Part shown: positions 42,819 to 47,378 of the stretch, piece after piece
Position numbering within the stretch: position 1 is the first letter of the stretch
Layout: every line of letters starts with the position of its first letter
Assembly: GCA_009920775.1 (NCBI GenBank)
Contig: RFZI01000001.1
Coordinates: 1-60,604, forward strand
Direction of reading: 5' to 3'
Source of the DNA: Paracoccaceae bacterium
GTDB taxonomy: Bacteria; Pseudomonadota; Alphaproteobacteria; Rhodobacterales; Rhodobacteraceae
Length of the DNA: 60,604 nt
Notes under the pieces: model-generated
Databases searched by the model: none
The model's input: the letters and a program-made list of their open reading frames with translations, nothing else
What the model was told of the DNA's origin: nothing
Program-made: the position numbers and the translations under genes

Positions 42819-44111
42819 ATGGTCGATATCGCAACCCGCGTCTGGAACCATAAGTGGAAGATCGACCCGATCGTCCGCTCGCTGATCGATACCGATTTCT
42901 ACAAGCTCCTGATGTGCCAGTCGGTCTTACGCAACAAGCCCGACACGCAAGTGACCTTCAGCCTCATCAACCGCTCCAAACATATCCGTCTGGCCGATCT
43001 GATCGACGAAGGCGAACTGCGCGAGCAGCTGGACCACATCCGCACCATCAGCCTCTCCCGCGGCGAAAGCACATGGCTGCGCGGCAATACCTTCTACGGC
43101 AAGCGCCAGATGTTCCGCCCCGATTTCATGGAGTGGTTCGAAAACCTCCGCCTGCCGCCCTATCACCTTGAAAAGCGCGACGGCCAATATGAGCTGACCT
43201 TCGAGGGCAACTGGCCCGAGGTCATGCTTTGGGAAATCCCGGCGCTAGCGGTCCTGATGGAGCTCCGCTCCCGCGCCGTCCTCAACGAAATGGCCAAGTT
43301 CGAGCTCGAGGTGCTCTACGCCCGCGCCATGGCCAAGCTCTGGGAAAAGGTCGAGCGCCTGCGCGAGATCCCCGACCTCAAGCTCGCCGATTTCGGCACC
43401 CGCCGCCGCCACGGCTTCCTCTGGCAGGACTGGTGCGTTCAGGCGCTGATGGAGGGCCTCGGAGACAAGTTCATCGGCACCTCCAACTGCCGCATCGCCA
43501 TGCGCCGCGATATCGAGGCGATCGGCACCAACGCCCACGAGCTGCCGATGATCTATGCGGCGCTGGCCGAGACCGACGACGAACTGCGCCAGGCGCCCTA
43601 CGATGTTCTGGCCGACTGGCACGAAGAGCACGACGGCAACCTGCGGATCATCCTGCCCGACACCTACGGCACCGAGGGCTTCCTCGAACGAGCCCCCGAC
43701 TGGCTCGCCAAATGGACCGGCATCCGCATCGATTCAGGCGATCCCGCGACGGGCGCCGAGATCGCCATCCGCTGGTGGCAAGAACGCGGCGAAGACCCGC
43801 GGCAAAAGCTCATCATCTTTTCCGATGGCCTCGACGTCGAGAAAATCGCCGAACTCAGCGCCCAGTTCCGCGGCCGCGCCCGCGTATCCTTCGGCTGGGG
43901 CACGCTCCTGACCAACGATTTCACCGGTCTCGTGAAAAACGACGCGCTGGCCCCCTTCAGCCTCGTCTGCAAAGCCGTCAGCGCCAACGGCCGCCCCACC
44001 GTGAAACTGAGCGACAACCCGAACAAAGCGATGGGCCCGAAGGCCGAGATCGCGCGGTATAAGCGGGTGTTTGGCGTGGGTGAACAGGTGGCGCGGGAGG
44101 TTAGGGTTTAG
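42819..44111 (+). CDS. pncB: nicotinate phosphoribosyltransferase
   Basis: 430 aa. [17 protein letters not shown] and GTNAHELPM motifs. Confidence 0.9.
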
Positions 44112-44635
44112 GGAAGGCTCGCCAAATCAGACTTTACCGATTGCAGCGTTTGCTCAAACGACAAATTGCGGCTCGCGGAACTGCAAACTGACCTTGAAAT
44201 CATCGCGGCCTGCAACTCTTCAAAGCCAATTTTCGAAGTCTTGTGAAGCCAATAGGCTACCTCAAACCAGTCCCAAAGTGGGCTAGCAGTAGTTATTCGA
44301 GCAACAGGTTTTGGAAAACCCTGGCCTCTCTGACCCCTTTCGTAAAGCGAAATAGCGGCCTTGCTCATAGAAGCACGAGCGGCGATGTCGGAAGCGGTAA
44401 CTAGAAAATCGGGCTCAAATCTTACTGGCTTTGCCCCCGCTGCGTTCAAGCTCTGGTAGGCGGATAGAACGGCGTCTAGATAGCTAGTAGCCTCTCGCGC
44501 AAAGCTAAGCGTGAGTGCCCCATGTTGAACAGCGATTGTTGCGTCGTCACACCCTGCGTCAAACAAGGCATCTTCAAAGCCAGGATCTTCGGGGTCCAGG
44601 CCGTCGATTACAAATGTAAACTCAAAGGTCGGCAT
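44108..44635 (-). CDS. DNA-binding protein, putative antitoxin (N-terminal HicB-like fold plus C-terminal HTH)
   Basis: 175 aa. [40 protein letters not shown] then [24 protein letters not shown] (HTH). Visibly lower GC than flanks. 14-bp overlap with the upstream small ORF. Confidence 0.5.
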
Positions 44636-45007: not shown

Positions 45008-45424
45008 TCACCCCACCTTCCCCCGCAACGCCTTCACCTCTCCGCGCTCCTTCTTCGCCTTGATCCGCCGTTCGATGCTGCCCTTGGTCGGCTTGGTCTT
45101 CACCCGCCGTTTCGGCGTCACGGTGGCTTTCAGCACCAGTTCCGCCAGCCGCTCTCGTGCGATCTCGCGGTTGCGGGCTTGGCTGCGGGTGTCTTGCACG
45201 AAGATCACGATGGCGCCGTCGAGGGTCCAGCGGCTCCCCGCTAAACGCTTCAACCGGCGCTTCACCGGATCGGGCAGGTTCGGGCTGCGCTCGGCCTCGA
45301 AGCGCAGCTCGACCGCGGTCGAGACCTTGTTCACATTCTGCCCGCCGGGGCCCGAGGCGCGGACGAATTGCTCGGTCAGCTCCCAGTCGGCGATCTCGAT
45401 CTGATCGGTGATTTTCAGGCCCAT
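45008..45424 (-). CDS. arfB: alternative ribosome-rescue factor ArfB (peptidyl-tRNA hydrolase, GGQ domain)
   Basis: Start at MGLKITDQIEI (ATG 45424). 138 aa, SGPGGQNVNKVSTAV GGQ motif and a basic C-terminal tail (KRRVKTKPTKGSIERRIKAKKERG). Confidence 0.9.
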   Translation of the reverse strand: MGLKITDQIEIADWELTEQFVRASGPGGQNVNKVSTAVELRFEAERSPNLPDPVKRRLKRLAGSRWTLDGAIVIFVQDTRSQARNREIARERLAELVLKATVTPKRRVKTKPTKGSIERRIKAKKERGEVKALRGKVG

Positions 45425-45494
45425 CGGCGCACATCCAATTTTGTACAAACCAGACAATAGGCCTTTCAGCCCTTGTACAAAACGCTCATTTTCC

Positions 45495-45530
45495 AACGAA
45501 AAGGGCCGCTCCGGCGATGGAGCGACCCTT
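45495..45530 (-). terminator. rho-independent terminator (minus strand) upstream of arfB
   Basis: Minus-strand GGGUCGCUCC-aucgcc-GGAGCGGCCC (10-bp stem, one mismatch) followed by UUUUCGUU. Confidence 0.6.
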
Positions 45531-45742
45531 CGAAAGTTCAGGAGGTGGTTCGGTTAGGGAAACCCCACCCCGGTGGTCTCGTCAGCCAAGGGCTGCCTCA
45601 GCTACGACTCCCCCGAAATGTCCCGACACCTTTCTCCAATCTCTTTCTCGACACTGGATCACCTCCTTTCAATGGGTTTCGCCTAAGAGGAGGTTTGCAC
45701 AGATATTGTGTATGTCAAATGAAAATACACAATTTGGCGTGA

Positions 45743-46384
45743 TCAGGCCTTCTGCTGAATCATTCTGCCCACAAAAAGGCGGAACGGGACGAGGGCGATG
45801 ATGGCGATCGCCAGCTTGACGCCCCAGTCGGCCACGGCGAGCGAAACCCAGAGCGGCGCATCCGGTCCGGTGGTCAGGAACGGCGCGGCCTCCCAAGCCC
45901 ACGAGACCTCGTCATTCGCCGCCGCCGAGAACAGCGTGGCAAAGGTCGCCGAGAAGGCCAGCGAGAAGAAGATGACCGTATCGACGACCGACGAGACAAG
46001 CGTCGAGACCAGCGGCGCGCGCCACCAGCTGCCATCGCGCAAGCGGTTAAACACAGCAACATCAAGGAGTTGGGCGGCAAGGAAGGCGGTGGCCGAGGCG
46101 ATGGCCACGCGGAAGGCCACGGCGGCATAGGTATAACCGTCACCCTCAAGCATGATCTGGCTGCCGATCAGCGAGCAGACGATGCCGACGACGAAACCGG
46201 CCAAGATCACGCGGCGGGCCGAGGCCGGGCCATAGACGCGGTTCATGATGTCGGTCACGAGGAAGGCGAAGGGATAGGTGAAGGCGCCCCAGGTGAGGAG
46301 GCCGTCGAGAAGGAGGAATTGAACGAGGATGTTCGAGGCCACCACGATGATGGCCATGGCGATAACGCCGGGCAGGATACGCAT
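45743..46384 (-). CDS. yhhQ: queuosine-precursor transporter YhhQ (VUT/DUF165 family)
   Basis: 213 aa, 6 TM. TYPFAFLVTDIMNRVYG and DTVIFFSLAF motifs of the YhhQ family. Confidence 0.85.
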   Translation of the reverse strand: MRILPGVIAMAIIVVASNILVQFLLLDGLLTWGAFTYPFAFLVTDIMNRVYGPASARRVILAGFVVGIVCSLIGSQIMLEGDGYTYAAVAFRVAIASATAFLAAQLLDVAVFNRLRDGSWWRAPLVSTLVSSVVDTVIFFSLAFSATFATLFSAAANDEVSWAWEAAPFLTTGPDAPLWVSLAVADWGVKLAIAIIALVPFRLFVGRMIQQKA

Positions 46385-46467: not shown

Positions 46468-47378
46468 TCAATCGGTGACGACGAACTCGACGAACTCGGT
46501 TTTCTGAATGGCCAGAAAGTTGTTGTCGGAAACGGTCGTCAACCGGAGGCGCCCCTCGCCATCCCGCCATGCCGAAATGCCTTCGAGATTGTCGTACTCC
46601 CAAGGCGCCGAGACCATCAGCGTCTCGGTCGCGCCATCCGCGAGGTCCATGCGCCGTATGCGCGAGCGGAAGCCAACGCCGACGAAATCCCGTTCGAGGA
46701 TATAGCGATAGCCGTCCGGCCCGACGTCGGCGCCAGTTATGAGAAAAGGGCCATCGCGGCTGAGTTCGCGCAGGACGGACTAGCGGGTGCCATCAAAGCG
46801 ATAGATAGGAAAGTCCTTGTCGAACCGGCCCGACCTCTCGGGCATAGTCAATAGGGCGCCGTCAGCCGCCGCCAAAGACTCCAGACTGGCGTTATTCTGC
46901 ATTTGTGCAAACTCGCGGCTGAGTTTGATCTCGGTTGGGACCGCATCGGGCGAAGCGTAGTGCCATACGCGCGCCGGCCCTTCGAAGCTACCGAGAAACC
47001 GCCCAGCCCGTCGAGAACAAGTCCTTCGCTATCGTCGTCGTCCTCCGAGAGGGGCTGTCCGTCCAACCCTAGAAGGTTGGTTTCGGCAGTGGCGCTCACT
47101 CCTTCAATACCGGCTGAAGTTCGCAGGAGCCGGCCCTGAACAAGGCGTCCCCGGTCCATTAGGACTGTGAGAGCAAGGCCATCCTCCCCAACCTCAAGCG
47201 CCGAGAAACCACCAAGTTCGGGGTTGTCGGTCTGCCAATGAAACCGGCTCAGAAGGCGGGCTTCCGCCGCCGAGGTGGCTTGCCCGGCAAAGAGTAGGGC
47301 TGCGCAAAGCGCATATCTGGTGATCAGGTGGATAGGTCTGGTCCTATTCGGCCTCGGCCCACGAGCCCTTTTCGCCAT
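46468..47378 (-). pseudogene. esterase-like-activity-of-phytase family secreted protein, frameshift plus premature stop
   Basis: ORF 46848-47378 (signal peptide, ..GGFSALEV..DSEGLVLDGLGGFSV) loses frame near 46987. The shifted frame reads FEGPARVWHYASP..MQNNASLESLAA..YRFDGTR-TAG(46780-46782)-SVLRE and joins ORF 46468-46650 (..EGISAWRDGEGRLRLTTVSDNNF). Confidence 0.7.

Follow-up and report, generated by a model that had tools for sequence, protein, structure and literature searches.

Organisation of the yhhQ-arfB intergenic region

The window analysed in this work is the whole 60,604-nt stretch of a Paracoccaceae bacterium (assembly GCA_009920775.1, contig RFZI01000001.1), and the element under study, which we identify below as a probable copy of the small mRNA gene rreR, occupies positions 45495-45742 and is read on the minus strand, between a gene for a queuosine-precursor transporter (yhhQ) and arfB. 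It includes an extended Shine-Dalgarno (SD) sequence complementary to the 3' tail of the 16S ribosomal RNA (rRNA), a small frame, copies of the complement of the SD (anti-SD) and an intrinsic-terminator-like hairpin (Table 1). Re-reading of the sequence found every feature of a preliminary description of this DNA at its coordinates on the minus strand, the NCBIfam profiles agreed with its naming of both flanking genes, and its outline of a small structured transcript unit with an extreme SD, a short frame and a terminator was borne out.

Table 1 Position of the features of the yhhQ-arfB region in the window, in the order of transcription.
Feature	Position	Strand	Remarks
yhhQ-type queuosine-precursor transporter	45743-46384	-	directly upstream; TIGR00697, 99.5 bits, cut-off 50.95 (NCBIfam)
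promoter region, inverted repeat ATTGTGTAT-N11-ATACACAAT	45705-45733	-	TTGACA (-35-like) inside, at 45718-45713
first 'anti-SD' copy, ACCTCCT	45688-45694	-	from the sequence; not conserved, presumed -10 region
presumed rreR transcript, ~186 nt	45499-45684	-	5' end inferred; 3' end placed at the U-tract
extended SD GAAAGGAGGTGATCCAG, 17-nt complement of the 16S rRNA 3' tail	45654-45670	-	core GGAGGTG at 45666-45660
hairpin H1, TCCAGT (45658-45653) : ATTGGA (45640-45635)	45635-45658	-	RNAalifold; start codon covered
rreR small frame, GTG + 17 codons + TGA	45598-45654	-	GTG 45654-45652, TGA 45600-45598; peptide begins (M)SRKRLEKGVGT
5' strand of long-range helix P1, GAAAG	45647-45643	-	in the H1 loop; codons 3-4
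central hairpin, CAGC loop	45584-45603	-	RNAalifold, covarying pairs; stop codon in 5' arm
internal anti-SD CACCTCC (within CACCTCCT, 45547-45540)	45541-45547	-	partner of the SD core in free RNA
3' strand of P1, CTTTC	45532-45536	-	partner is GAAAG of codons 3-4
intrinsic-terminator-like hairpin GGGTCGCTCC-ATCGCC-GGAGCGGCCC	45528-45503	-	followed by TTTT, 45502-45499; G+C-rich
spacer from terminator to arfB, 74 nt	45425-45498	-	two copies of TTTGTACAA, 45482-45473 and 45449-45441
arfB, alternative ribosome-rescue peptidyl-tRNA hydrolase	45008-45424	-	NF006718, 185.4 bits, cut-off 100 (NCBIfam)

Identification of the element as a probable rreR gene

The rre ('ribosome-regulated expression') genes are small mRNA genes (Hahn et al., RNA Biol 2016/17;14:1353; PMC5711450). 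According to the main text of that paper, rreR is a gene of the Rhodobacter/Roseobacter clade, defined by 16-17 nt complementary to the 16S 3' end, the last base lying within a GTG, and by an 18-codon frame; its Bradyrhizobium counterpart, rreB, is a 165-nt mRNA with a 17-nt SD. The same text describes rreB as co-sedimenting with 30S subunits and with the ribosome pellet in strong association, as weakly translated, and as more stable once its start codon is swapped for a stop codon, that is, as subject to start-codon-dependent turnover. The preliminary description had singled out a relation to the ribosome as the point of interest, and this published 30S binding agrees with it.

In the window, the 17-mer at 45670-45654 is the 16S complement, its last base is the G with which the GTG (45654-45652) begins, and the frame that follows has 18 codons. 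The lineage also agrees: a 37-nt 5' pattern searched against named records returned at least 120 matching rows, including Dinoroseobacter, Jannaschia, Planktomarina, Cereibacter/Rhodobacter sphaeroides and other Rhodobacterales, the genera named here being among those that the paper lists too. One record with the rreR motif, L146, is labelled 'uncultured Exiguobacterium sp.' (a Firmicute metagenome-assembled genome) and probably is a mislabelled or contaminated bin; all other named records among the matches listed are Rhodobacterales. The element resembles rreR and rreB, as presented in PMC5711450, in the 16-17 nt complement ending in GTG, the small transcript unit with its own terminator and the lineage, and rreR also in the 18-codon frame, with no difference in kind from the latter. 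We therefore consider it very probable that the element is a copy of the published rreR, with the ribosome-docking reading that this implies; the rreR element itself is already known.

The best Rfam match, a sub-threshold one, was RF01867, the Caulobacter small RNA (sRNA) CC2171 (41.3 bits, E 7.3e-7, at 45678-45502). The statement of the preliminary description that no known RNA family could be matched consequently gives way to rreR and, as nearest Rfam entry, RF01867. Window and model have in common a 5' consensus that includes GAAAGGAGGUGAUCCAGUGUC, a terminal hairpin, and a long-range helix that joins the sequence following the start codon to the sequence preceding the terminator. They differ in the middle of the RNA, which is not alignable, in the internal anti-SD, present in the Rhodobacteraceae form and not seen by eye in the homologues from the rest of the class, and in the cataloguing of CC2171 by Rfam as a non-coding sRNA. 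The RF01867 model matched 22 of 151 genomes of the class in a profile search, and an RNA of this family has been reported as confirmed by Northern blot in Methylorubrum (bioRxiv 10.1101/2022.01.24.477521).

The main text of PMC5711450 contains no occurrence of CC2171, Rfam, arfB or anti-SD, its figures or supplements being places where a predicted rreR structure may appear; the main text of a Sinorhizobium Ribo-seq paper (PMC10117765) does not mention rreB or an extended SD; and the literature searched included no paper joining an extended-SD small mRNA with ArfB, or ArfB, Rhodobacter and an sRNA together. To judge from these texts, four points seem to be unpublished: that rre and CC2171 are equivalent, the internal anti-SD, the long-range helix with its covariation, and the tight placing of rreR before arfB.

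Conservation of the extended SD and of the 18-codon frame

BLAST matches to the stretch were present in 162 of 201 genomes of the family, nearly always as a single copy, and the best-kept part was the SD together with the first part of the frame. The best-scoring 70 of the 162 matches were examined, two on very short contigs being skipped (30 loci, the window's own included, and 40 further ones); a pattern picked out 68, which are the family loci counted below, and the other two (L061 and L074) also have an 18-codon frame between yhhQ and arfB. At the level of the class, the hallmark GAAAGGAGGTGATCC-N-(A/G/T)TG was found in 62 of 401 genomes, and the reversed pattern, used as a control, in 0 of 401.

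The plus strand of the 17-mer had been described as identical to the 16S terminus. In two other genomes of the family, the complement of the 17-mer forms the extreme 3' end of the SSU rRNA match of Rfam, which supports this identity there; in the window's own genome (82.6% complete, 319 contigs) the 17-mer occurs once and the 16S end is not assembled. The exact 17-mer is kept in 51 of the 68 family loci. Ten loci (L062, L066, L068, L077, L080, L084, L094, L096, L098 and L025) read GGTGGTCC in place of GGTGATCC in the SD extension, an A>G change compatible with a G.U pair, and seven further loci have other changes in the 3' part of the SD (e.g. GCTCTA, or GCCCA with a TTG start). A co-change of the 16S tail with the A>G variant was considered and rejected: in two of the carriers, genomes G019 and G059, a second locus, presumably the 16S end, retains the canonical GATCC, so that the variant reads as a G.U wobble against the 16S rRNA. 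In L063, the change in the SD region seems to put the hairpin over the start codon one register out.

The frame has 18 codons in all 68 family loci, starting with GTG in 67 and TTG in one, and ending in TGA (34), TAG (24) or TAA (10). Codon 2 changes only among synonymous serine codons (TCG 16, TCA 4, TCT 7; n=27), and the N-terminal part of the peptide, SR..LE..VGT, is conserved among the 68 homologues. Elsewhere in the class, in other families, ATG, GTG or TTG serves as start codon at the same distance from the SD, and the frames, read by eye, have about 23-29 codons and encode unrelated peptides. An invariant length combined with varying stop and start codons fits a frame that is truly read, a function of the peptide not being implied.

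Predicted folds of the RNA

The stretch folds far better than its shuffles (-102.5 kcal/mol, z -4.65). Structures were compared in an alignment (A1) of the 27 family copies with an exact SD core among the first 30 loci. RNAalifold on A1 paired the downstream CACCUCC to the GGAGGUG of the SD core in all 27 copies, and single-sequence folds from the presumed 5' end gave the same SD:anti-SD helix in 27 of 27, with all 7 pairs in 26 of them and 6 in L019. Changes in this helix are confined to the anti-SD side and are wobble-compatible (4 G.U, 2 U.G, 1 break), the SD side being held constant by other constraints. The internal anti-SD motif was found in 62 of the 68 family loci. The first bases of the GAAA leading the SD are unpaired in most of the single-sequence folds, and this open GAAA may be a toehold.

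Two further hairpins accompany the SD:anti-SD helix. H1, UCCAGU:AUUGGA, is nearly invariant in the RNAalifold structure (3 of 162 cells depart from it, with no covarying pair), and the central hairpin has covarying pairs at alignment columns 95:115, 96:114, 99:111 and 100:110. By eye, the class-level homologues have a similar hairpin, whose loop is CAGC or CAAC.

Forcing the SD and the start codon open costs a mean of 12.5 kcal/mol over the 27 sequences, and the resulting open fold is a rod in which GAAAG of codons 3-4 is paired with CUUUC just before the terminator (helix P1). With anchors fixed independently of the pairing, 126 of 135 P1 cells were paired, compared with 112.4 +/- 2.5 in shuffles, 0 of 5000 shuffles reaching 126, and compensatory changes occurred at three positions (A-T to G-C in 7 copies and to T-A in 3; G-C to A-T in 2). 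For the class, 22 loci were reduced to 19 with the SD core near the centre and then to 18, after L046, in which no terminator was found, was dropped; in these 18 loci the 5' part of the frame paired with its own pre-terminator stretch at -17.4 kcal/mol, versus -9.8 kcal/mol for non-cognate partners (0 of 10000 permutations). Taken with the SD:anti-SD pairing, the support for P1 makes both folds look selected, a picture that fits the toehold idea proposed for rreB by its authors (PMC5711450).

Promoter region and first anti-SD copy

A simple consensus scan passed no sigma-70-type promoter in this region. The same scan did not list the terminator, whose hairpin is nonetheless present in every fold and in the Rfam alignment. 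The downstream half of the promoter, TTGACA.ACACAA..CTGTG, is conserved across genera, the upstream arm only in some. The core TTGACA.ACACAA..CTGTG(C) (45701-45718 on the minus strand in the window; compared in L006-L034) has a variable, non-TATAAT-like stretch at the expected -10 position. An alternative sigma factor or an activator may act at the rreR promoter.

Class-level homologue leaders likewise begin near AGGCG, the motif at which the rreR transcript is presumed to start. No RNA-library contig covered 45710-45817 in the four runs searched, a gap that carries no weight for the position of the start. The first anti-SD copy probably lies upstream of the transcript start, outside the RNA, and it is not conserved even within the genus (ACCTCTT in L006; columns 3-12 of A1 are variable). 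Being unconserved and within the promoter, it makes the 'twin anti-SD copies' of the preliminary description no feature of the family: the downstream copy alone is conserved. The proposed trio of one SD and two anti-SD copies is kept in relatives only as the SD and the downstream copy, and of the suggestion that the SD may pair with either anti-SD the part concerning the downstream copy stands, the first copy probably not being part of the RNA.

Gene order and the connection with arfB

The yhhQ gene lies directly upstream of rreR on the same strand in all 68 family loci, usually preceded by a phytase-like gene, and 54 of these loci have arfB downstream on the same strand, no more than 400 nt from the SD. 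In the 52 loci in which both the terminator and arfB could be placed, the U-tract and the ATG of arfB are 14 to 227 nt apart (median 51); in 17 loci they are separated by at most 36 nt, and in 26 by at most 50 nt. Spacers of up to 36 nt leave no room for a separate arfB promoter downstream of the terminator. The U-tracts are short, 60 of the 63 loci having runs of 3-5.

Among four metatranscriptome runs, which come from four studies, three contigs, each of a different study, bridge the terminator: X1 (45418-45684), X2 (45451-45700) and X3 (45340-45545), the last identical to the window; over the presumed transcript, the contigs together span 45418-45700. For about a third of the genera examined, transcription of arfB would be explained most simply by read-through of the rreR terminator. 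That part of arfB transcription in Rhodobacteraceae comes from such read-through is, in our judgement, an evenly balanced proposition, and some coupling of rreR to arfB is possible.

Several spacers between rreR and arfB (window 45441-45482, L028, L032, L020, L009 and L017) contain GTAYRC-like repeats, mostly direct and spaced by about 10-12 nt. Examples are two copies each of TTTGTACAA, CCGTACACAC and CGGTATGCCTA, in the window, L032 and L020 respectively, and three of cgTATGG in L028. These repeats look like the TGTGTA/TACACA half-sites of the rreR promoter and may be binding sites of a regulator common to rreR and arfB.

The genes beyond this group vary. Upstream of yhhQ, the phytase-like gene is split in the window (46468-47378, minus strand), with an N-terminal piece (PF13449 positions 2-88) in the open reading frame (ORF) 46848-47378 and a C-terminal piece (positions 254-284) in the ORF 46468-46650, which is in a different frame; either the gene is a pseudogene here, or frameshift errors in a metagenome-assembled genome account for the split. 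Directly downstream of arfB, a 175-amino-acid ORF (44108-44635, minus strand) had no Pfam or NCBIfam match, and among genera the genes in this position differ (DUF3800, nitroreductase, KAP NTPase, APH, MrcB_N).

Discussion

The anatomy of the element, its conservation, its two folds and its gene order were established here computationally, and they can be arranged into the following mechanism. The transcript, some 186 nt long and equipped with a promoter and a terminator of its own, would carry the 17-nt complement of the free 16S tail, ending in the G of GTG. In the closed state, the internal CACCUCC would hold the SD core and a short hairpin would lie over the start codon, leaving the GAAA open. 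A 30S subunit would then seed on this GAAA toehold and displace the internal anti-SD, and after its docking the RNA would refold into the rod, with codons 3-4 paired to the pre-terminator stretch. Translation would be weak, and the lifetime of the RNA would probably be set by ribosome engagement, both of these having been measured for rreB in Bradyrhizobium. What is published on 30S binding, on weak translation and on decay that depends on the start codon concerns rreB only (text of PMC5711450) and is extended to rreR by analogy.

Several points weigh against this reading of the element as a ribosome-docking rreR. The 3' part of the 17-mer is changed in 17 of the 68 family loci, and these loci belong to the best-scoring 70 of 162, a sample that therefore leans towards close relatives. 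The changes in the SD:anti-SD helix are a sign of compatibility and not of true covariation. Within the family, the duplex energy of P1 did not distinguish cognate from non-cognate strands (-5.8 versus -5.7 kcal/mol; 2874 of 10000 permutations as good), a test that is uninformative because the strands hardly vary and two pairing registers exist. The start of the transcript, near AGGCG at about 45684, is a probable position derived from the spacing of the class-level -10 box. The RF01867 match that the proposed Rfam check returned is below the gathering score of 75, with the same outcome in a whole-genome search, and no Rfam family reached its gathering score anywhere in the window. Finally, both the rreR RNA and the organism of the window are known here from sequence computation alone.

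Among the ways in which rreR could act on arfB, we tentatively put forward, as a speculation that is itself unlikely, that rreR is the 30S-sensing leader of an rreR-arfB unit, the super-SD reporting free 30S subunits and a ribosome on rreR altering the fate of the read-through transcript. The link to arfB on which this depends meets objections of its own. The arfB gene is farther away in 4 of the 68 family loci and was not seen within about 1.3-1.7 kb in 10, and it stands beside the RNA in 0 of 19 class-level loci from other families. The bridging contigs are only compatible with read-through, since contigs cannot prove a single transcript and DNA is possible in RNA libraries. In the longer spacers, the repeats could belong to a promoter of arfB itself.

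The preliminary description had proposed a translation-sensing attenuator in front of arfB. Under such a scheme, occupancy of the super-SD or translation of the frame would decide on terminator formation and thereby on the amount of ArfB. The yhhQ-rreR-arfB order in 54 of 68 family loci, the 17 of 52 spacers too short for a separate promoter, the contigs crossing the terminator, the short U-tracts, which fit leaky termination, and the position of the conserved anti-SD and of the 3' strand of P1 directly 5' of the terminator stem are all in keeping with it. However, the terminator hairpin was unchanged in free folds, in folds with the SD and start codon blocked and in folds with a 30S-sized footprint blocked (means over 27 relatives; structures of 4), and the stop codon, about 70 nt ahead of the terminator stem, is too distant for a ribosome terminating there to be in contact with the terminator. 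A conserved antiterminator pairing, looked for by eye between the SD or the freed anti-SD and the terminator arms, came down to a match of 4 bp without conservation in relatives, so that a SD/anti-SD switch acting on the terminator was rejected. The first anti-SD copy, which belongs to the proposed scheme, is unconserved, and arfB is missing from the side of the RNA in all the class-level loci and is absent or distant in 10-14 of the 68 family loci. The attenuator, for which no pairing that undoes the terminator was found, is consequently improbable.

Leader-peptide attenuators of the trpL type offer a comparison for such a scheme; rnTrpL of Sinorhizobium is reportedly a ribosome-dependent one. 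The likeness consists in a short frame and, after it, a terminator, both upstream of a gene of the same orientation, and in a liberated small RNA that may have a life of its own. In contrast, the forced folds of rreR gave no terminator/antiterminator alternative, its frame ends far from the terminator, and in other orders the RNA has no downstream partner. A second comparison is with the arfA and brfA mRNAs, where truncated non-stop mRNAs of the factor itself link expression to the capacity for ribosome rescue. The idea is alike, in that the expression of a rescue factor is coupled to the state of translation through its own transcript, whereas rreR is a separate upstream mini-mRNA with a super-SD before an intact arfB, and the coupling is hypothetical.

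Two other explanations are highly unlikely. The first is a ribosome-titrating sponge, also proposed in the preliminary description, whose 17-bp duplex would sequester 30S subunits and lower translation globally. The complement does span the whole free 16S tail, and PMC5711450 describes a strong association of rreB with the 30S and the ribosome pellet; however, the same text reports that overproduction of rreB left growth unchanged and that ribosomes far outnumber the RNA, which disfavours titration. Moreover, the gene is single in nearly all genomes, and a sponge would have no use for a frame of 18 codons in 68 of 68 loci.

The second, held with no greater confidence, is a purely non-coding trans-acting sRNA whose anti-SD blocks the ribosome-binding sites of target mRNAs, the frame being incidental. 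It can draw on the listing of the Caulobacter relative as an sRNA by Rfam, on the Northern detection in Methylorubrum cited above, and on the retention of the anti-SD in 62 of 68 family loci. Against it, this anti-SD is paired with the SD of the RNA itself in 27 of 27 folds, and by eye no anti-SD precedes the terminator in the class-level homologues. An invariant frame length with a varying stop codon, and a start codon that keeps its place whether it is ATG, GTG or TTG, are hard to square with an RNA that is not read, and weak translation of rreB has been measured (PMC5711450). Chance similarity or a stray plus-strand fragment of a 16S rRNA gene, to which the identity of the plus strand with the 16S terminus over 17 nt might point, has a negligible probability and is already refuted by conservation and controls: the match is limited to those 17 nt, no Rfam rRNA match reaches the gathering score in the window, the flanks are kept as a unit in 162 of 201 family genomes, and the reversed pattern gave nothing in 401.

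Identification of the element as rreR joins two things that have been catalogued separately, the rre small mRNAs and the Rfam sRNA CC2171. The rre genes are kept across several orders of Alphaproteobacteria; in the 19 class-level loci neither yhhQ nor arfB is a neighbour and the contexts are unrelated, and the text of the rreB authors states that genomic context is not conserved outside Bradyrhizobiaceae (PMC5711450). If the 30S-sensing leader proposed for Rhodobacteraceae is real, the binding of a ribosome to rreR (or its trapping and cleavage there) would raise ArfB when ribosomes are tied up, and an RNA that mimics both partners of the SD/anti-SD interaction would thus provide a homeostatic loop for ribosome rescue.

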